From positions 45,594-109,593 of the forward strand of contig JAIPIA010000002.1 in NCBI GenBank assembly GCA_021734945.1: 64,000 nucleotides of DNA, in the 5' to 3' direction. Numbering within the stretch: the first letter of the stretch is position 1; each line of letters starts with the position of its first letter. Positions 21,303 through 32,431 of the stretch are shown here, in pieces. The notes below the pieces were generated by a model. The model ran no database searches. It was not told where the DNA came from and was given only the letters and a program-made list of their open reading frames with translations. Both the position numbers and the translations under genes were made by a program. Source of the DNA: Minisyncoccota bacterium (GTDB lineage: Bacteria; Patescibacteriota; Minisyncoccia; Phycocordibacterales; CAIZLB01).

Positions 21303-21836
21303 CTATTTTAAACCCAATTTATCCTTAATAGACACAAGGTTAAACATATCTTTATTTTTTATATGGACGATAGATAAGTTTGAACTTCTTGCAACATCAT
21401 CAACAAATATATCCCTTTCGATTCTATCTTGCCTATCATGAGTTACATCATCTAGCTCTATTATAAGTAGTGGATTGAAATATGGTTTACTGAATATTAC
21501 AAAATCTACCTTCTTCTTATTTATTTTATTATTATAAGTCTTGAACAAATGCTCATTCTTTTTAACCTCCACGAGAGCACTCAATACAACCTGTGGAACA
21601 ATGTAGAAATTATTGTTAATAAGAACTTCAAGTTGTTGATAGAATACCCATTCAGCCTTTGTCATTAAATATTTTTTCTTCACATAAGGCAATATTTCTT
21701 GCGCAGGCAAAGCTTTCTCAACATCAACATGGGAGATTTTTACCGAAACCTTTGCGTATGAGACTAGCGCAACAAAAACAAATAAAGCGAAAATAATTAT
21801 AGGTAAAAATGTAGACATATCTTGATTATACAACAA
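21303..21836 (-). CDS. DUF2726-domain protein (restriction-endonuclease-like fold) with N-terminal TM
   Basis: LMTKAEWVFYQQLEVL ... KVDFVIFSK ... PLLIIELDDVTHDRQDRIERDIFVD matches the DUF2726 pattern. Confidence 0.55.
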   Translation of the reverse strand: MLYNQDMSTFLPIIIFALFVFVALVSYAKVSVKISHVDVEKALPAQEILPYVKKKYLMTKAEWVFYQQLEVLINNNFYIVPQVVLSALVEVKKNEHLFKTYNNKINKKKVDFVIFSKPYFNPLLIIELDDVTHDRQDRIERDIFVDDVARSSNLSIVHIKNKDMFNLVSIKDKLGLK

Positions 21837-22506
21837 ACCCTAACTCCCCTAATCTCGCCAAAGCTTTTTCCATGAAATAAATCCAATGGTCGTTATCTTT
21901 ATTCTCATTGCGAGCATTCATATCAGCGAGTAGTTCATCGGCACTTACCCATACGAGAGAAAATGTTTCGTGTTCTTCGAGTTCAACAGGATGTACGTCA
22001 GCGCTTTTGAGAATTATCAAAAGACATGTTGCGTGAGCTACGCGATTCACATTTCGCAAACTGTTGTGATAATGAGTGAGTGCTTGGCCAATAACTTCAA
22101 TTTGTGCGAAATCATAGAGACCACTCTCCTCTCGCACTTCTCGGAGTATTCCTTCCATGATGTCCTCATCTGCACTTACACCGCCTGAGAATAGTCGAAG
22201 TGCGCCGTTTGAGGATGTAGACGCCGGTTTTGATGTCGTGTTAGTAGGTGCAGTGTTTTGTGTGTCAGGCAATATAGTGCTTTGTGTAGGTGCTGGATCT
22301 TCTGGTGCTACGGACATAGGTGCAGTAGCGAGCGCAATTATAGGCGCGACTTTGTGATATTGTTTGCCAACCGCAAAAAGTTTTGTAGCAGGATCATACA
22401 CAATTCCACAACCACCATCACGTCGCTCTTCGTTTTCGCGTGGTGTGCCGAATTCTTTTATTGAGGGGTTTTGGATTTGAGACATATTATTTATTAGGAT
22501 TTTCAA
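21826..22506 (-). CDS. NUDIX hydrolase with a Pro/Thr/Ala-rich insertion of about 50 aa
   Basis: Nudix box GGVSADEDIMEGILREVREESGL. Start overlaps the upstream gene by 20 bp and the stop overlaps the downstream gene by 11 bp. Confidence 0.7.
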   Translation of the reverse strand: MKILINNMSQIQNPSIKEFGTPRENEERRDGGCGIVYDPATKLFAVGKQYHKVAPIIALATAPMSVAPEDPAPTQSTILPDTQNTAPTNTTSKPASTSSNGALRLFSGGVSADEDIMEGILREVREESGLYDFAQIEVIGQALTHYHNSLRNVNRVAHATCLLIILKSADVHPVELEEHETFSLVWVSADELLADMNARNENKDNDHWIYFMEKALARLGELGFVV

Positions 22507-23170
22507 TTATTAACTTTCTCCATCCCATTATGTTTGTCAAAATTGTATCTTTACATTTTTCAATATCTTTGTATTCACCATCGTATGGTAACCGTGCAAA
22601 ACCTTTAAACTCGTCTTTTTTAAGACTCAGTATTCTATCTTCTAAAACAACAACAATATTTTCATTATCTTCGTAAGCAGTACATACAATTGCCGTTTGA
22701 ATACCAGAAACTTTCTTAATTCCGAATTGTTGCAAAAAATTTATTTGATCTTCATTGGCAATAATTGATACGAGTTTTGGTCTTGCCCCACCAAAATAGC
22801 TGTGGTTAGCAGGAAATAGATAAATTGAAAAAACATAAACAAAAAATATAGAGACTACAATGGTACAAAGAAATCTAATAAAATTAGAAATCTCTCCTTT
22901 TTCTGCAAATATAGGAGATATTGTGATATGGAAAAATTTTAATAATCCATTTATAATTTCAATTATCAACTTCGCAAAACCATATAGTCCTATGTAAGTC
23001 AGAATAAAGCATGTGCCAGTAAGTATATAAATTCCTTGAAATAAATTTGGAGTAACCCCAAGAAACTGCAGATATATATTCCATACAAAAAATCCTAGAC
23101 CATATGCAGAGGTTGCATATATAGCTAATGACTTACCTATTAATTCAATCTTTTTCTCTATATTTGCCAT
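22487..23170 (-). CDS. Polytopic membrane protein, hypothetical
   Basis: 227 aa with 5-6 hydrophobic helices. Immediately downstream of hsdR. Confidence 0.4.
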   Translation of the reverse strand: MANIEKKIELIGKSLAIYATSAYGLGFFVWNIYLQFLGVTPNLFQGIYILTGTCFILTYIGLYGFAKLIIEIINGLLKFFHITISPIFAEKGEISNFIRFLCTIVVSIFFVYVFSIYLFPANHSYFGGARPKLVSIIANEDQINFLQQFGIKKVSGIQTAIVCTAYEDNENIVVVLEDRILSLKKDEFKGFARLPYDGEYKDIEKCKDTILTNIMGWRKLIIENPNK

Positions 23171-23219: not shown

Positions 23220-26200
23220 CTAAGCCCTCTCAACAGCAAACAACTCAGCCTGCTCAAGGACTGTCTCAGTAGCAGACTCTTGAAAATCTGGCGGGTAACC
23301 ATACTGATTTAGTAGTCTTTTTACCATTACACGCATACGTGCACGCGCTGATTCTCGAACGCTCCAATCTATAGTGGCGTTTTCCTGTACTTTTCCGACC
23401 AAGATTCGGGCGAGTTCTTTTAACTTGTCGTCACCAAGCACTTTCTCAGCACTTTCATTTTGAGCAAGTGCATCATAAAATGCAATCTCATCCTTAGATA
23501 GACCTAGTAAATCCCCTCTTTTATCAGCTTCTTTGATATCTTTTGCAAGTTTAATCAACTCTTCGATAACTTGTGCCGCAGTTAGCAAGTTGTTTTGATA
23601 TCTTTTAATAGCTGCGTGCAACATTTCTGAGAACTTTCTTGCTTGCACTGCGTTCATTTTACTTCTACCACGAAGCTCATCGTTCAAAATCTTCTTTAAA
23701 AGTTCAAGACTAATATTCTGGTGTTTCATCGTTCGTATTTCTTCCAAGAATTCTTCTGACAAAATAGAAATATCAGGTTTCTTGATTCCTGCAGCATCAA
23801 AGATATCTACCACTCCATGCGACACTACCGCCTTATCCACAATCTGTCGGATAGTCGATTCAACATCTATATCTCGTGAACCACCATCGCTTGCCAACTT
23901 TATCAATCGAGCTTTTACCGCTTGGAAAAATGCTACTTCTTCTCGAATAGCAATAGCTCTTGGGTTTGGCATTGCTAATGCAAAAAGCTTTGAGAGTGCT
24001 ATTACCTCTTTTATAAATCTTTCTTTTCGATTATCACCAGCACGTACATCAAGCAAAAACTCTTCTGTTTCAAGAATGGCTCGAAGCTTTGTCTGCGCAT
24101 CATTGATTAGCACTACTTCTTTTGGTGTAGATCCCTTTATATAGTCGTATGAAAGGCCATCTAAGATACCGTATATCGTTTCCAGTTTACCGAGCATATG
24201 TGGTACGACGTCAGTATTTTGTTCAGTGACCATCTCACCTTTTCCTCCACTCTCTGTGTATACAGCAAGAGCCTCTTTCAGGTCTGATGCGATACCAATA
24301 TAATCAACAATCAATCCTCCCGGCTTATCCTTAAATACTCGATTCACTCTCGCAATTGCCTGCATGAGGTTTGCACCCTGCATCGGCTTATCAATATACA
24401 TAGTGTGCATGCATGGCACATCAAAACCCGTGAGCCACATGTCTCGAACAATCACCAACTTGAGTTCGTCTTTTGTGTCTTTAAATCTATTTGCCAAATC
24501 CTTACGATCATCTTTAGTTGTATGATGCGGCTGAAACTCTACAGGATCAGAGGAAGTCGCAGTCATTACAACTTTGAGCGCCCCACCAGTTTTTGCATCA
24601 CTATGCCATTCTGGTTTGAGTGCAATAATCGCATTGTATAGATCTACCGCAATACGTCGACTCATAGCAACAATCATTGCTTTTCCATCAAAAGCTTCCT
24701 GTCGAGCTTCAAAGTGAGTGACGATGTCTTGTGCAATGTCAGCAACACGTGCACCATGTCCGACTACCGCTTCAAGCTGTGCCCATTTTGCTTTGGCTTT
24801 TTCGCTCACAGTAGATTCTTCGCTTTCTAATATTTCATCTACAGTTCTATCTAGCTGTGCTTTCGCTCCTTCATTGAACTCAAGCTTTACCAGTCTTGAT
24901 TCATAACTAATAGGCACCGTTGCACCATCCTCTACCGCCGCTTTAATGTCATACACATCAACATATTCACCAAAAACATTTCTAGTATTCGCATCTTCTT
25001 TCTCAATAGGTGTTCCAGTGAATCCAAGGAATGATGCATTCGGTAATGCATCACGAACATACTTTGCAAATCCATAACTTACATATGCTCCACCCTCATT
25101 TTCACGCACTCTCGCAGTAAATCCATACTGTGAACGGTGTGCTTCATCAGCCATTACTATAATATTTGAACGATCTGAAAGTGCCTCATATTCCACCTCA
25201 CCTTCCATCAATGAAAATTTCTGTATTGTTGTAAATATTACTCCACCTCCATTTGTAGCCAAAAGTTTTCGGAGATCTGCCCGATCTTGTGCCTGCACAG
25301 GGTCTTGTCGAAGTAAATCTTTTGCACCAGCAAATGTATCAAAAAGTTGTTGATCGAGATCATTTCTATCTGTAAGAACTACGATGGTTGGATTGTTAAG
25401 TTGCTGAACAATTTTTCCAGCATAAAACACCATAGACAGTGACTTTCCTGATCCTTGAGTGTGCCATACTACTCCAGCTCGTTTATCACTCCTTATCGCT
25501 TGTATAGTTGAATTGATGGCTTTTTGTACTGCAAAATACTGATGGTATGCAGCTGTCTTTTTGATAGTCTTCATTTCAAGTGATCCATCAGAAAGTGTTT
25601 TCTTTTCAACTTCAAAGACAGTGAAATTTCGAATGAGATCAAGTAACACTTGCGGATGAAGCATACCTTGTACAAGTGTTTCAATTTGTGGAGTTGTTCG
25701 ATTTGCATCACGAGTACCATTGATAGACTTCCATGCTAAGAATCGATCGAATCCACTTGTAATAGTTCCTGTACGCGCATCAAGTCCATCTGAAATAACT
25801 AACAATCCATTGTATGCAAATAAATCTGGAATAGCTTTTTGGTAGTTTGTGAGCTGGGTAAATGCCTTATGAACAGTTGCCTCTTCATTCTTTGCGTCTT
25901 TGAGTTCTATGACCGCAAGTGGTAATCCATTCACAAAAAGTACAACATCAGGAATCTTATCTCGTTCCAGTCCTTTTATATAAAATTGATTTGTAGAAAT
26001 GAGGTCATTCTCAAGAAAATCATTCCACTCAATAATCTGGACATCCTTACCTCTCATGTGACCATCTTCGAGCACTTCTACTTTTACACCTTCGACAAGT
26101 AGCTTGTGCATAGCTCGGTTGTTCTCTACGACGTTGTCAGTCAATGATGCAGTACGGAGTATTTCATTGACCGCAAATATGCAAACATCCTGCGATAGGT

Positions 26201-26363
26201 TTGGATTAAGATTGGTCACAGCAGACATAAGGCGATCCTTGAGAACTACCTGCGATAGATCTGGACGTTCTGGCTCTAATGCTTCAGGACTTACATAAAC
26301 AAAGCCGACTTTTCCAAGAAGTTCGAGTGTAAGCTGTTCAATTGAGGATTCGTTGAGGGGCAT
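23220..26363 (-). CDS. hsdR: Type I restriction enzyme R subunit
   Basis: 1047 aa. HsdR N-terminal domain, SF2 helicase motifs ([15 protein letters not shown]), C-terminal domain. Confidence 0.95.
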
Positions 26364-26488: not shown

Positions 26489-26761
26489 TTACCAATTTCT
26501 TTTGAAATGCCAACTCTCAAAATTCTTATATTCAAACTCCTTATAATCAATAGGATTAAATAGTTCGTTAGACACGATAACAGATGAAACATCCCTCAAG
26601 AAAGTTTTTTTAGCGTGCATTCCTTCTGGGCTATCTACTGATACATAATAAATTGAATATCCATTAAAACCATCATCCGGATTTTCTCCACAATCTAGCG
26701 GTATACATTTCCGTGCCTTAGAATTACCATCTTTGTCTGTAATTATTAGCCCTAGAATCAT
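26489..26761 (-). CDS. Small hypothetical protein between hsdS and hsdR
   Basis: 90-aa ORF with no motif recognised. Position suggests co-transcription. Confidence 0.3.
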   Translation of the reverse strand: MILGLIITDKDGNSKARKCIPLDCGENPDDGFNGYSIYYVSVDSPEGMHAKKTFLRDVSSVIVSNELFNPIDYKEFEYKNFESWHFKRNW

Positions 26762-26824: not shown

Positions 26825-27997
26825 TTAACTTGTAAATATAACACCTAATAATTTATCTCTCAGTCTTGACAGTGTCTGAATTTCTAAAAAATTATTGAAA
26901 ACTTTTTCATCTGTAGAAATGATAATTTGATTAAATCCTTCCTGAATTTCTCTAGATGGAACAATGACTTTAATATTCCTGAAATCATCCTTATTAATTG
27001 AACCAAACACCGTACCGCCTGCTTCAAATTTTTGAATATCTGATTGAGTATTTTTCATCATGTAGAAACAGAAAGATTTGAGATCTGAAGATACACCAGC
27101 AACACCTCGACCAAGACAGCATACTTCGGTTGCTTGATTTATATCACCGACAGGGGCCCTTACACTAACCAATACATCAAACCTATTCGCGGTCCTTTTT
27201 GGCTCAGTCGTATAGAGACGAACAGATGGAAAACGATTACCGAAATCAGTACGACCTTGATAGAAAATAATTCCTTCTCCATCTTCATTATAACTTTCAC
27301 CAGATGGTGACTGTCCCATAGTAATCTTAAATAACTCGCCCAACTTTCCAAGCCCCCACCCTTCCGGCAAACCGTTCACTATCTCCACATCCTCGTGTCC
27401 ATGGAATCGAAAATTGACAAACCACTCCTGAAACAAAGTCTGTGCCATTTTCTCAAGAGTTGTATTCTCACGACGAAGAAGTTCAATTTTATCGTCGAGG
27501 GAGCAGAGGATCGAAGCTATTTCCTTTTGTTCTTCTATGAGGGGAAGTCTAAATTGTTTATTTGCTAATATGTCTGTTTGTACACGCTGTCTCCCTGATG
27601 TCCCCGTCATAGATCTAATTGCAATGTTTCGGAAAAAAGGAGAAATTATAAAGTAATAAATAAATTTCGAATCACTTACATGCTCTTTTTCACGAAAGAC
27701 AAGATATTCAGTTGAGCCGAAGCCAACCTGATCATTCTCAAGAAAATCGACAAAAGCAGTCTTACCATTTTCTAGACATGGAGTAATACGAGCCATCAAT
27801 GTATCTCTATTTTTAAACTTTTGCCCTCCATTAAATTCTTTAAGCTCAAAGCTTGAAACCTGTCTTGTGAATGGATTGATTTTTTCCATCGGTAGATATG
27901 GAGCTATATTTTTTTTGGGAATTTTTTCAATTGGATTGATTTGCAAAAAACTTGAGAGCCTTATATCTTTCCAATTCTCACGTGATGATATGTTCAT
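26825..27997 (-). CDS. hsdS: Type I restriction-modification specificity subunit
   Basis: 390 aa. Two target-recognition domains separated by conserved coiled-coil repeats (LPLIEEQKEIASIL..LDDKIELL). Confidence 0.85.
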   Translation of the reverse strand: MNISSRENWKDIRLSSFLQINPIEKIPKKNIAPYLPMEKINPFTRQVSSFELKEFNGGQKFKNRDTLMARITPCLENGKTAFVDFLENDQVGFGSTEYLVFREKEHVSDSKFIYYFIISPFFRNIAIRSMTGTSGRQRVQTDILANKQFRLPLIEEQKEIASILCSLDDKIELLRRENTTLEKMAQTLFQEWFVNFRFHGHEDVEIVNGLPEGWGLGKLGELFKITMGQSPSGESYNEDGEGIIFYQGRTDFGNRFPSVRLYTTEPKRTANRFDVLVSVRAPVGDINQATEVCCLGRGVAGVSSDLKSFCFYMMKNTQSDIQKFEAGGTVFGSINKDDFRNIKVIVPSREIQEGFNQIIISTDEKVFNNFLEIQTLSRLRDKLLGVIFTS

Positions 27998-28001
27998 AAT
28001 A

Positions 28002-28568
28002 TTATTCAGAAGTTATTTTATAGATACCCTGCCCGATTGAATATAAACAAAAAAGCACCGTAGCAGTTATTATAAATAGAACAGTTTCCTTGCAAAAAAT
28101 ATGATTTGAAAACGCAAGCGAAATAATACAAACACTTATCACACAAAAATTAAAGATTAAAATAAACTTTAATTTTCCTAAAATATCGGACTTTTTATTT
28201 ATATGTTCTCTGTATAAATTCTCAGTGAAAAAATCAATGGAATAGTTTATTAGAGTATCACTCCGTACGGTGCTCTGAATACCAACTCTAGAGGGATCAT
28301 TGGTTTTAATCTTTACTAATTCAGAAAACTTTCTTAAAATCTTCGAATCAGGCATTGTGTATAAAACCCCTAGACTAATCGGTTCATAATCTTTTGTATT
28401 AGCTGCAGCATAAGAATATAATTTTATAACCGCTAATCTTGTCTCAGATAGTATTTTCTCAAAATCTTGTATCTTCCAAACCACAAAAACGGCAAATAAT
28501 CCCGCGAGCGCGGCAAGGACTTGAGCTGATGTACTTAATGTATAAAACCAAATATTATTAAAATCCAT
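28002..28568 (-). CDS. Membrane protein of unknown function inside the type I R-M operon
   Basis: 188 aa. TM helix at the N-terminus and two at the C-terminus. 4-bp gaps to both neighbours. Confidence 0.4.
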   Translation of the reverse strand: MDFNNIWFYTLSTSAQVLAALAGLFAVFVVWKIQDFEKILSETRLAVIKLYSYAAANTKDYEPISLGVLYTMPDSKILRKFSELVKIKTNDPSRVGIQSTVRSDTLINYSIDFFTENLYREHINKKSDILGKLKFILIFNFCVISVCIISLAFSNHIFCKETVLFIITATVLFCLYSIGQGIYKITSE

Positions 28569-28572
28569 ATAT

Positions 28573-28767
28573 TTATTTCTTCTTCACCCCATACTTCGGT
28601 TCAGTCTCTCTATCTGCAAGTTCCTTACCTGACCAACGACCAATTCGCACCTTACAATCATTACAAAGTATTTCGCTGACTCCATCGTACGCATCAGGAG
28701 TACCTGGCACATACTGCACCATTATAATATTTTCACTTTTACATTTTTTACAAGTTTGTTTTTCCAT
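28573..28767 (-). CDS. Small zinc-ribbon protein (CxxC ... CxxC)
   Basis: 64 aa with CKKCKS and CNDCKV pairs. Confidence 0.45.
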   Translation of the reverse strand: MEKQTCKKCKSENIIMVQYVPGTPDAYDGVSEILCNDCKVRIGRWSGKELADRETEPKYGVKKK

Positions 28768-28775
28768 AAAATATA

Positions 28776-29390
28776 TTAGGAATTAATTTTTAATAATCGT
28801 AACTGCTCGACTAGCAGATATACCGTTGTGAATGGATCTCGCTTGAGAGGTGACTCTGTTCCATCTTTAGTATACTGTTTTTCCAAATTCTTAGCATTAC
28901 GCATTGCATCAAATTCTCGCCCCTTCACCAGAGAATACATGTCGATATTTTTCTCATATTTTCGACCGATATGCTTGGTGAGTTTCCCTGCAAATGCATC
29001 ACGGCCAAGTGATGTTTGTAAAAATTCGAAGTGGAGAATAAACCACAACTCAAAGCATTCATTAGAATACGCTACCTGTATACCATTATCTCGTGCCAAC
29101 CGTATTGAACGATCAAAATGCTCGTGATCATCCCGATCAAAGACAACCCACCATTCTGTTTCAAAAGTGGATTTGTGATTTGAACTTTCAGCATCCTTTT
29201 CTTCCATCACATATTTTACGAGTGACTGGGTACTTCGACTCGTCGGATGAATCTGAATATCAATCTGTGTTAAACCCAACTCATCCTTAATAGCTCCAAA
29301 ATAATTAGGTTCAGTTTTTTCTCCTTCAGTATAGATACGAATAACCTTTTTAGGTTTCAAATTACTTGGTTTTCGCGGGAACCTATTCAT
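28776..29390 (-). CDS. RloB-like (AbiLii-type, Toprim-like) protein
   Basis: IRIYTEGEKTEPNYF N-terminal signature plus WWVVFDRDDHEHF and AYSNECFELWFILHF blocks characteristic of RloB. Confidence 0.8.
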   Translation of the reverse strand: MNRFPRKPSNLKPKKVIRIYTEGEKTEPNYFGAIKDELGLTQIDIQIHPTSRSTQSLVKYVMEEKDAESSNHKSTFETEWWVVFDRDDHEHFDRSIRLARDNGIQVAYSNECFELWFILHFEFLQTSLGRDAFAGKLTKHIGRKYEKNIDMYSLVKGREFDAMRNAKNLEKQYTKDGTESPLKRDPFTTVYLLVEQLRLLKINS

Positions 29391-29392
29391 GC

Positions 29393-30640
29393 TTATTTTA
29401 GAACTGAACGGATAAATGGTAATGCTCCGAATCGACCTTCGAGATACTTTTTTGAAAACTCAGTATCATTTCGTATATCAAACTCTCCAAGAGAAAAGAG
29501 CTTACTACCATCAAACTCATCTTTCTCTGTGAACCAAAATTGATCTTTTATAAAATCATCCTTGTATGACAAAAGGCTCGTATCGTGTGTTGTTACGATA
29601 AGTTGTGCACCATTTTTATTCATTTCTTCTGACTCAAAGAGATCTATTATAAACTTGGTTAATTTAGGGTGGAGACTATTATCGAATTCATCAACAATCA
29701 TAATCTTACCGTTTTGGAGAGTATCTATGACTGGACCAAGTACAGAGACAAACTTTTGTGTACCAGTAGATTCCTTATCGAAAGGAACCTCGAATGACCC
29801 CGTCACCTTATGGTCATCATCATGAACTGGATGCTCAAAAAAGAGCATGTTACTTTTTTGTTTTGTAGCTGAAGCAGAGAACTCACCAAAATTATTTTTA
29901 ACATTAATTGCAGGACGTTCTACTTCCTCTGATCTTCCATTAATAATACAAAAATCTGCATGTTTGAGATACGTCAGGATTTGCTCTTTATATACAAGAT
30001 CAGTAGCAAATTTCTTAGCAGTAAAATCTTGATAGGTTTGGTAAGCAACACCAGATATAATATTCAAGCCGTCCCTAATTGCATTAAGAATAGATAAAGA
30101 CATCTGATCGTTCCATTGTGCAGCTACCGAGAGAAATAAAGTCTCCTTGCGCATCTTTTTTACGAGATCCTTATCAATGCTTTTATCCAAAACGATATCC
30201 TGTCCATTTCTCACAAAGAGCTCTTCTGTATTTCCATTTGCTAAAACCTTTACAAAAGACTCTTCAACAATATGATCTTTTACAAATGAAAAGAAATATA
30301 GATAGGTACCGTCATATTTGCCGTCAATAGAAAATGTGAACCAAAAAGATGTAGGTTTCTTTTGTGTAGTAGCTGATCCCGAAAATGGAGTATACGGCAA
30401 CTCCGCATCCACAGGATTATTTGAAGAAAGCATAATCCCGTTTTTCATAATAGTAAGAGCCTCCAGAATAGTAGTCTTTCCTGAAGCATTCGGACCATAA
30501 ATGAAAGAGGTTTTGAGTAGATTTTCACCGTTACTTTCAAAGGTATGGCGGTCGTTTTTTCGAGCAACCATTGAAAAAGTAGCCTTATTTTTAAAGGTTT
30601 TAAAGTTTTCGAGAGAGAATTCAATAAGTGAAATTTGCAT
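29393..30640 (-). CDS. AAA_21/ABC-like ATPase (RloA / AbiLi-type)
   Basis: Walker A GPNASGKTT, Walker B IMIVDEFDNSLHP, QLIVTTHD. A 3-bp gap to the RloB gene. Confidence 0.8.
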   Translation of the reverse strand: MQISLIEFSLENFKTFKNKATFSMVARKNDRHTFESNGENLLKTSFIYGPNASGKTTILEALTIMKNGIMLSSNNPVDAELPYTPFSGSATTQKKPTSFWFTFSIDGKYDGTYLYFFSFVKDHIVEESFVKVLANGNTEELFVRNGQDIVLDKSIDKDLVKKMRKETLFLSVAAQWNDQMSLSILNAIRDGLNIISGVAYQTYQDFTAKKFATDLVYKEQILTYLKHADFCIINGRSEEVERPAINVKNNFGEFSASATKQKSNMLFFEHPVHDDDHKVTGSFEVPFDKESTGTQKFVSVLGPVIDTLQNGKIMIVDEFDNSLHPKLTKFIIDLFESEEMNKNGAQLIVTTHDTSLLSYKDDFIKDQFWFTEKDEFDGSKLFSLGEFDIRNDTEFSKKYLEGRFGALPFIRSVLK

Positions 30641-30853
30641 ATATTTTGCTATTTATTTCTTTAATTACTCTTAAAGTATACATATTTGAAACAAATTTGC
30701 AAGTTTTTTACATATTTTAATTATTTAACATTATCCAAAACTCTCATTTAACATCGATTCCATTTGACCCTTATAAAATAAGGATTAAATAGAATTATGT
30801 AAAAATATTATCTATCACGACTCCAATATCAATTAATATCAGATAGTATTAGA

Positions 30854-32431
30854 TTACAACTCAATCCCCACCTTCGCCAGCTGCTTCTTTATTTCCTCAT
30901 TCAACCTCACCTCCTCAGCCATCTGTTCCTTGAGCTCTGCTGTCAATTTTGCCATCTTTTCTTCAAATGGAACACCATCGTCTATAGCATCTGTGATACC
31001 AACGTATCGTCCCGGAGTAAGCACATAGTTATGCTTTTGAATATCAGCTATTGTTGCAGATTTTGAAAACCCTTTTTTGTCTTCATAGGCACCACCTGTT
31101 CGCCATTCGTGATATACCTTTGCAATCATTGCCACATCATTATCTTCAGGATCAATTGAGCCATCAGAAAATTCTCGATGTGTTCTGTCAGCCATAAATC
31201 CAACTTCTGATGCATCAATAAACAACACCTCATCTGCTTTTTTACGATCAGTGTTTCCTACTCTCTTTCTTGATAAAAACCAAATACACGCTGGAATACC
31301 CGTATTGTAAAAAAGTTGTTTTGGAAGCATTACAATACAATCAACAAGATTTGCATCGACAAGCGCTTTTCGAATATCCCCTTCTCCACTTGATTGTGAT
31401 GAAAGTGAACCATTTGCAAGTACTGTTGCCATTATACCGTTTGGCGACAAGTGATACAGCATGTGCTGAATCCATGCAAAGTTAGCATTACCTGTTGGCG
31501 GTTTACCATATTTCCATCGAGGATCATTTTGTAGTAGTTCACCACTCCAATCAGAGATGTTGAATGGTGGATTCGCGAGGATATAGTCCGCTTTTAGATC
31601 TTTGTGTTCATCTTTAAGAAACGATCCTTCTGTATTCCATTTAATACCTGTACCATCAATTCCTCGAATCGCCATATTCATACGTGCAAGTCGGTATGTC
31701 GTCTGATTACTTTCTTGTCCATACACCGCAATATCATCTACACGACCAGAATGTGCTGTAACGAATTTTTCAGACATAATAAACATTCCTCCAGAACCAC
31801 AGCACGGGTCATAGATTCGCCCTTTGTACGGTTCAATCATTTCTACCATCAGTTTTACAATTGATTTCGGAGTATAGAACTGTCCTCCTTTTTTACCTTC
31901 TGCATTTGCAAATTCTCCTAAGAAATATTCATATACACGACCAAGTAAATCTTTTGCTTTTGAAGCAGTATCGCCAAGTGAAATATTGCCGATCAAATCG
32001 ATCAATCCACCAAGAGAATTTTTATCAAGATTTGGTCGAGCAAATACTTTTGGAAGGATCCCCTTAAGCTCTGGGTTTAGTTTTTCGATATGTTCCATCG
32101 CCATGTCGAGATCTTCACCAATAGTAGGAAGTTTGGCTCGTCCATGGAGATAGCTCCATCGTGCCTCCTTTGGTACATAAAACACATGTTCAGCACGATA
32201 TTCATCAATGTCTTCAGGATTAGCCCCTTGTGATTTTTGATCTGAAAGTTTCTGATAGAGTTCCTCAAATGAATCTGATATGTATTTTAAAAATACAAGA
32301 CCAAGAGCTACATTTTTATATTCTGCAGCATCAATGTTTTTACGTAATTTATCAGCAGCTTTAAAAAGCTGTTTTTCGAAGGGTTCTGTTTTGTTTCCAA
32401 CTGTTTTACCCCCGGCCGGACGATCTTTCAT
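30854..32431 (-). CDS. hsdM: Type I restriction-modification N6-adenine DNA methyltransferase subunit
   Basis: HsdM N-terminal domain. AdoMet motif DPCCGSGGM. Catalytic LANPPFN. Confidence 0.95.

Follow-up and report, generated by a model that had tools for sequence, protein, structure and literature searches.

Two small genes wedged between the RloB gene and hsdS of a Type I restriction-modification (R-M) operon, one encoding a 64-aa putative zinc-ribbon protein (here called ZnR) and the other a 188-aa membrane protein (here called X), are not a pair; they are independent passengers of that operon. The operon, which carries an AbiL cassette, lies in a 64,000-nucleotide stretch of DNA (the window) whose host is a member of Candidatus Pacebacteria (CPR/Patescibacteria). 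Proteins identical to X and ZnR have been deposited from a metagenome-assembled genome of that group. ZnR forms the 3' end of a swappable AbiLi-AbiLii-ZnR cassette that occupies a variable slot after hsdM. X is not a member of the cassette; like hsdS it belongs to the backbone of the operon, co-diverging with hsdM and hsdR. Our best explanation as a whole, to which we assign a probability of roughly 0.45, is that the two genes are independent passengers, with X working on its own at the membrane as a protein of defence or exclusion and ZnR being a mobile accessory to modules of the toxin type.

That Type I operons can harbour embedded genes, and that AbiL can occupy this particular slot, is already known; the X and ZnR families, though undescribed, are in keeping with that theme. 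Defence in the CPR/Patescibacteria is almost unexplored, and few systems have been recognised in these tiny genomes. X is a CPR-only family (the single exception is given below) found repeatedly at the hsdM-hsdS junction and also next to genes of Type III R-M and toxin-antitoxin systems, HEPN genes, and integrase genes, and ZnR is a small family with members both on uncultivated phage contigs and in defence islands of the CPR. Should X turn out to act in defence or exclusion, or to partner the Type I enzyme at the membrane, it would represent a lineage-specific layer of CPR immunity and would offer a handle on how epibionts police incoming DNA. As it stands, X is a guilt-by-association candidate, like many others.

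Operon organization and the cassette boundary

The genes of the operon are tightly packed on the minus strand in the order hsdM, a 213-nt spacer, AbiLi, AbiLii/RloB, ZnR, X, hsdS, a 90-aa orphan, and hsdR (Table 1). The Type I assignment follows from the N6_Mtase domain of HsdM, the two Methylase_S domains of HsdS, and the combination of HSDR_N with an SF2 motor in HsdR, and the AbiL assignment follows from an AAA_21-type ATPase gene followed by one for a RloB (Toprim-like) protein. PADLOC's AbiL models comprise AbiLi and AbiLii only, and ZnR matches none of PADLOC's models; to our knowledge, no third component of AbiL has been described.

Table 1. Coordinates of the operon genes and of the cargo cassette in the window
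Feature	Position	Strand	Supporting matches
hsdM, Type I methyltransferase, backbone	30854..32431	-	PF02384 6e-107 + PF12161
AbiLi / RloA-like AAA_21 ATPase	29393..30640	-	PADLOC AbiLi 2e-84; PF13304 1.9e-27
AbiLii / RloB	28776..29390	-	PF13707 1.6e-42; PADLOC AbiLii 2.8e-26
ZnR, 64 aa, C6xxC9 … C35xxC38, last gene of the cassette	28573..28767	-	
X, 188 aa, predicted three-pass membrane protein, backbone	28002..28568	-	
hsdS, two target-recognition domains	26825..27997	-	PF01420 8.1e-26, two stretches
90-aa orphan, second variable slot (hsdS/hsdR)	26489..26761	-	no family match (Pfam, NCBIfam, PADLOC, PHROGs)
hsdR	23220..26363	-	HSDR_N, SWI2_SNF2, T1R_D3-like, T1RH-like_C
Swappable cargo cassette: 213-nt intergenic + AbiLi + AbiLii/RloB + ZnR	28582..30862	-	blastn vs L027

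Much of the initial annotation of this region was borne out. The 64-aa CxxC…CxxC open reading frame and the 188-aa one lie exactly where it had placed them, and the tight packing that it described within an R-M/AbiL operon, all on one strand, is seen in the gaps read off the sequence: ZnR starts 8 nt after the RloB stop, X follows ZnR after 4 nt, and another 4 nt separate X from hsdS. Its calls for the flanking genes agree with the family matches (PF13707 and PADLOC AbiLii for RloB; PF01420 for hsdS). It had also stated that neither protein resembles a known R-M component; Pfam, NCBIfam, and PADLOC returned no family match for X or ZnR, and by these searches neither belongs to a known family of R-M subunits (R, M, or S) or of controllers (C-protein HTH). 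Judged from sequence conservation, both are real genes under purifying selection and not chance open reading frames, because X homologues form 48 clusters and ZnR homologues 16 clusters at 90% identity, the latter with 27 invariant columns, because ZnR also has 11 viral loci in IMG/VR, and because dN/dS was 0.137/1.66 for X (window versus L027) and 0.20/1.37 for ZnR (window versus L015).

The boundary of the cassette emerged from a comparison with two other operons. L027 is an orthologous Type I operon, with 86% identity to the window in hsdM, 80% in hsdR, and 77% in X, and L001 is a more distant orthologue (68%, 56%, and 47%, respectively). DNA homology between the window and L027 (blastn) extends through hsdM (32380-30863), is then lost, and resumes at 28581, 13 nt upstream of the X start codon, from where it covers X and the first part of hsdS (to 27968); it is present again in the hsdS core and in hsdR. 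The breakpoint at 28581/28582 separates ZnR from X, and the 2.3-kb block at 28582-30862 is replaced in L027 by unrelated genes of 118 aa and 120 aa, while the same slot in L001 holds a 207-aa gene. Because homology breaks at 30863 and resumes at 28581, ZnR is assigned to the AbiL cassette and X to the backbone. The DNA of the X-hsdS junction is conserved between the window and L027, and X is steadier in the window's operon lineage than AbiL is and is the older resident of the operon. The hsdS-hsdR slot is variable as well, holding the 90-aa orphan in the window, a PIN_12 gene plus a 277-aa gene in L027, and a gene for a HATPase_c_3 protein in L001. ZnR and X were found together at none of the 34 X loci and none of the 18 ZnR loci. 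The suggestion that the pair is a variable insertion in the hsdM-hsdS spacer was, for the operons compared, right about the slot, which is variable, and about ZnR, which lies on the swapped cassette, but not about X, which lies on the conserved backbone.

Several further observations were made in and around this slot. The alternative cargo of L027 (1692-2048) has a weak match (E=5e-4) to Trypco2, a conflict-system domain. The hsdM-hsdS slot of other CPR Type I operons holds different, unrelated membrane proteins, namely a 158-aa single-pass protein overlapping the hsdS start in L013 (9695-10171) and the 207-aa protein of L001 (7306-7929), which has C-terminal transmembrane (TM) helices. The GC content of the cargo (0.32-0.37) is slightly under that of the hsd genes. 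Imperfect inverted-repeat pairs bracket AbiLi-AbiLii-ZnR-X, at 27988-28022/30772-30806 (71% complementary) and 27939-27954/30700-30715 (88%); they are AT-rich, lie off the boundary derived from L027, and are probably chance matches. Promoter-like sites were no commoner than in shuffled sequence and terminator-like sites marginally commoner, no convincing terminator was found between the operon genes, and there was no Rfam match. The window has no tRNA genes, which could have marked an island edge. Downstream of hsdR, on the same strand (21303-23170), follow a 227-aa multi-TM orphan without matches (22487-23170, 49 nt after hsdR), a NUDIX protein gene (21826-22506), and a DUF2726 protein gene (21303-21836, minus strand), and the island may extend past the R-M operon into these genes.

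The X and ZnR families

Hydropathy gives X hydrophobic segments at residues ~8-31, 133-155, and 160-183, and the AF2 model (pLDDT 89.9) has helices at 3-56, 113-152, and 160-187, in agreement with the one N-terminal and two C-terminal helices originally described. In the model the long TM1 helix extends as far as residue 56 and is followed by a small alpha/beta insert (57-112) and by a return helix that leads from 113 into TM2. From their K/R-rich flanks, residues 32-134 are predicted to be cytoplasmic, and the predicted architecture is one of an N-out TM1 (5-31), a ~100-aa cytoplasmic stalk plus insert (32-132), and TM2 and TM3 (133-183). TM1, NIWFYTLSTSAQVLAALAGLFAVFVVW, has a mean identity of 84% among 27 members versus 25-37% elsewhere in the protein, and over 75 distant members the corresponding values are 53% versus 13-26%. 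Q16 is invariant across those 75, with Y9, S12, and F28 nearly so, and Y9, S12/T13, and Q16 share one helical face, forming a polar stripe. At the DNA level the TM1-coding part (window 28464-28573 versus L001 7996-8102) is 83.6% identical, compared with 65-70% for hsdM. As far as alignments can tell, X combines in an unusual way a TM helix that hardly varies with a cytoplasmic domain that evolves fast. The invariance of TM1 and the recurrence of the hsdM-X-hsdS order are puzzling features worth following.

No specific relative of X emerged from fold or sequence searches. Pfam searches with 75 distant relatives gave scattered sub-threshold matches only (DUF2207_C, DUF6594, DUF2721), and the SLATT families (Pfam SLATT_1-6 and SLATT_fungal) were matched neither by X at E<0.1 nor by any of the 75 relatives at E<0.01; the best viral SLATT fold match (E=0.52, TM-score 0.31) was not significant. 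Rip1 (PDB 9oox) was returned by a profile search of PDB sequences at E=1.5 and 12 bits, which does not amount to a likeness. A pilin-like TM1 was considered and rejected, as X has neither a G|F cleavage motif nor E5 and carries two extra C-terminal TM helices.

A profile search placed the size of the X family at ~780 clusters at 50% identity, with members of ~170-220 aa matched end to end. All hits bearing organism names come from Patescibacteria (Paceibacteria, Saccharibacteria, Peribacteria, and Gracilibacteria) or unclassified bacteria, except one from a Terrimicrobiaceae metagenome-assembled genome. The homologues are all labelled "hypothetical protein" and have no precomputed Pfam domain among the matches listed. 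X is rare and patchy: of 185,579 species genomes, 9 have it, and these are spread across Paceibacteria, Saccharibacteria, and Peribacteria. It was not found in IMG/VR or in cultured phages. Since so few species genomes carry it and these nevertheless belong to distant CPR classes, its distribution indicates the pattern of a horizontally moving accessory gene. The prospect, raised with the initial annotation, that the two genes might be conserved housekeeping genes found outside R-M contexts agrees with the roughly one-half of X contexts that have no R-M genes, but a housekeeping gene would be far less rare and patchy than X.

Of 34 X loci collected, ~19 non-redundant contexts were examined. 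Type I loci with X include the window, L027, L001, L004, and L033; L004 has the order M-X-S with an hsdM only 22% identical, belonging to a different hsdM family, and L033 has hsdM-X. At least three independent Type I lineages thereby have X immediately behind hsdM or in front of hsdS. On a neighbour-joining tree the X genes linked to Type I systems do not group together, so the link of X to the hsdM-hsdS junction was gained or lost several times. L013, a related CPR Type I operon with an hsdM 53% identical, has no X, and X is therefore not required by this Type I enzyme family. Elsewhere X is divergent from a Type III R-M system (L018), lies in an HTH-X-HEPN_AbiU2-helicase/REase array (L032) or an ABC2-X-HEPN array (L035 and L036), precedes a 79-aa gene and then ParE (L010), or precedes a weak Mrr-like gene (L038); an integrase-X arrangement was also seen. 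R-M, HEPN, toxin-antitoxin, or integrase genes adjoin X in ~10 of the 19 contexts. About half of the contexts have no recognisable defence gene, about half or more have no R-M gene, and X stands alone in L018 and L024.

Unremarkable or housekeeping-like neighbourhoods were seen in L029-31, L019, L007, L009/L025, L024, L022, L037, and L039, with neighbours such as P-type ATPase/RimK (L029), RNR (L019), and glyoxalase (L009 and L025), and the synteny of L029-31 is kept over 12 contigs. An all-against-all BLAST of neighbours found no recurrent unannotated partner of X besides the hsd genes. Some neighbours are recorded here as side observations: in L032 (337-1698) an XRE-type HTH gene (4-nt gap) and the HEPN_AbiU2 gene flank X; dnaX (DNA polymerase III gamma/tau) lies within a few kilobases of X in three unrelated loci (L007, L022, and L024); and a ~589-aa thioredoxin-like membrane protein, 50% identical between loci, is encoded near X in L029 and L009, which are otherwise different.

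The ZnR family has the motif EY..P..YDG[IV]SE..C..C..R.GRWSGK.L..GE.E..FG, and its AF2 model, a weak one (pLDDT 67), has three short strands. In bacteria ZnR follows two different Fic genes at 25-26 nt, one adjoining GmrSD and a Type I R-M system and the other a SNF2/DUF4391/methyltransferase cluster; it lies 15 nt after Phd-ParE and upstream of an MvaI/BcnI nuclease gene; and in L017 it lies near RadC and Phd-ParE, behind a Hint-domain gene after a 230-nt gap. The viral loci are on uncultivated phage contigs, in early and DNA-metabolism regions with exonucleases, RusA, regulators, and terminase as neighbours, and none was found in cultured phages or plasmids. The closest described proteins are the uncharacterised phage families PHROG 5602 and 15572, small zinc-ribbon proteins that are like ZnR in their size (~60 aa), their two CxxC knuckles, and their place in gene-dense early phage regions. 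The matches to them, however, are weak (E=7e-4 and 1.4e-3), the ZnR family's own signature, YDG[IV]SE…GRWSGK.L, is undescribed, and some phage members of the ZnR family have no cysteines. Zinc binding may not be the conserved function of the family, because some phage homologues without the cysteines keep the motif. Among these homologues (L049 6001-6165; L043-L045) the first knuckle is CxC or most cysteines are missing, and the YDGISE…GRW motif is kept.

Two identities were tried for ZnR and rejected. A homologue (P0059) carries the JGI name RpoP/RPC12, but the sole Pfam match was zinc_ribbon_6 at E=0.08, under the cut-off, and NCBIfam gave no match. A YgiT/MqsA-type antitoxin has no Pfam or NCBIfam match to recommend it, and ZnR is 64 aa long with no HTH. 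As read from five bacterial contexts only, ZnR is most likely a small accessory or regulator that binds nucleic acid or protein and moves with defence modules of the toxin type, and not a sensor for X.

Possible roles of X and ZnR

We hypothesize, tentatively as regards its function, that X is an autonomous, single-protein, membrane-acting defence or exclusion factor. TM1 with its polar stripe could be the effector or oligomerisation element, either forming a pore or leak or making contact with a conserved CPR membrane machine, and the fast-evolving cytoplasmic domain could be the part that meets components of the invader. X would act alongside the R-M enzyme and not through it, like other genes embedded in Type I operons; the TgvAB genes, for instance, are embedded in such an operon and act as an independent defence system (PMC11411939), and Rip1 combines sensor and pore in a single defence protein (reviewed in PMC13434031). 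A pore-forming or abortive-infection effector would oligomerise in the membrane, depolarise or permeabilise it on a phage trigger, and be toxic when activated; for X the features to go by are the predicted three-TM topology and the conserved polar stripe of TM1. Searches for homology to tested defence proteins (PADLOC; Rip1, at the score given above; Pfam including SLATT) found none.

The Rlo genes of Campylobacter, AbiL/RloAB, and TgvAB of Vibrio cholerae VPI-2 (PMC11411939) are like the window in having extra same-strand genes, co-transcribed, between the hsd genes. In this group of embedded defence genes the cargo varies between orthologous operons, and the slot in the window carries bona fide AbiLi/AbiLii. 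Unlike the embedded genes described so far, X and ZnR have no homology to known ones, and X is steadier than the cargo and occurs also outside R-M loci. The Rip1 sensor-pore, the Sie/Imm-type superinfection-exclusion proteins of phages, and the SLATT 2TM effectors share with X a small size, the combination of TM helices with a soluble portion, and single genes in defence or mobile contexts; in X it is the membrane portion that is conserved and the soluble portion that varies. X differs from them in that it has no sequence or fold match, in its predicted topology of one TM helix, a cytoplasmic domain, and two TM helices, and in being chromosomal and not phage-borne. LdgA and DdgA are Patescibacteria-restricted anti-phage genes obtained by functional metagenomic selection (PMC12366544); compared by description only, they offer a lead, being confined to the CPR, having no recognisable homology or fold, and forming single genes or small systems.

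The housekeeping-like neighbourhoods (L029-31 with their 12 contigs, L019, L009/L025, L024, and L022) invite the explanation that X is an ordinary non-defence membrane protein of the CPR, for example of the envelope or of transport, and that some R-M operons have merely trapped its gene or share a transcript with it. Proteins docking to core membrane machinery typically have a TM helix as strongly conserved as this one, and phage-borne copies of X were not found, both of which accord with such a protein. Against this stand the spread of X over distant CPR classes in only ~9 of the 185,579 species representatives, which points to horizontal transfer of an accessory gene, and the ~10 of 19 contexts with R-M, HEPN, toxin-antitoxin, or integrase genes beside it. 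That X should adjoin hsdS or hsdM by chance in three or more independent lineages would moreover have a probability of ~1e-5, by a rough estimate that assumes ~0.2% of genes to flank an hsd gene, and we regard an ordinary membrane protein as somewhat unlikely. The recurrence at hsd genes could instead mean that the Type I enzyme has acquired X as an accessory subunit specific to the lineage, one that would tether or gate M2S or R2M2S at the cytoplasmic membrane, where foreign DNA enters, a function of possible importance to CPR epibionts importing DNA. X lies 1-8 nt upstream of hsdS in four operons and directly downstream of hsdM in L004 and L033; it is kept while the flanking cargo is swapped, co-diverges with hsdM and hsdR, and recurs at Type I systems with an hsdM only 22% identical; and in the Type I operon of L013 the start of hsdS is overlapped by the gene for another, single-pass membrane protein. 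The ~100-aa cytoplasmic domain would be free for docking, and its stalk might bind HsdS or HsdM. Yet we know of no membrane subunit of a Type I enzyme, more than half of the X contexts have no R-M gene, X can stand alone, and it is absent from L013 with its 53% identical hsdM. The presumed docking part is, in addition, the least conserved part of X and TM1 the most conserved, and we judge such a subunit to be decidedly unlikely. A bolder version, in which X is a fourth, membrane-embedded component of Type I R-M in the CPR that positions or gates the complex at the point of DNA entry, with TM1 docking the DNA-uptake or pilus machinery, would account for why X is kept beside hsdS despite the turnover of cargo and recurs in unrelated Type I lineages; this we rate as a long shot. 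The autonomous membrane-acting factor remains the reading that we prefer for X.

ZnR and X had been proposed in the initial annotation to form one two-gene abortive-infection module, the ribbon acting as a nucleic-acid-binding sensor and the membrane protein as the effector. Their adjacency on the same strand with a 4-nt gap fits such a module, and a ribbon-plus-membrane-effector architecture is common among Abi systems. The proposal did not survive the comparison of loci, however: the two do not co-occur across 52 other loci, the cassette breakpoint falls between them, and ZnR has recurrent partners of its own (Fic and ParE) as well as phage copies, so that a joint module is now very improbable indeed. 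ZnR could alternatively be a functional third component of this AbiL variant and likewise of the Fic and ParE modules, as an antitoxin-like or regulatory partner of the toxin-type protein encoded upstream. It lies directly downstream of a toxin-type gene at 8 nt (RloB), 25-26 nt (Fic), and 15 nt (ParE), and it has moved with AbiLi and AbiLii as one cassette. These upstream partners, a Toprim-like protein, an AMPylase, and a gyrase poison, have, however, no mechanism in common, Phd already serves ParE as its antitoxin, ZnR in L017 stands 230 nt behind a Hint-domain gene, and the phage copies of ZnR are found among replication and recombination genes, with no toxin nearby. We consider a dedicated third component unlikely and favour for ZnR a mobile accessory of toxin-type modules.
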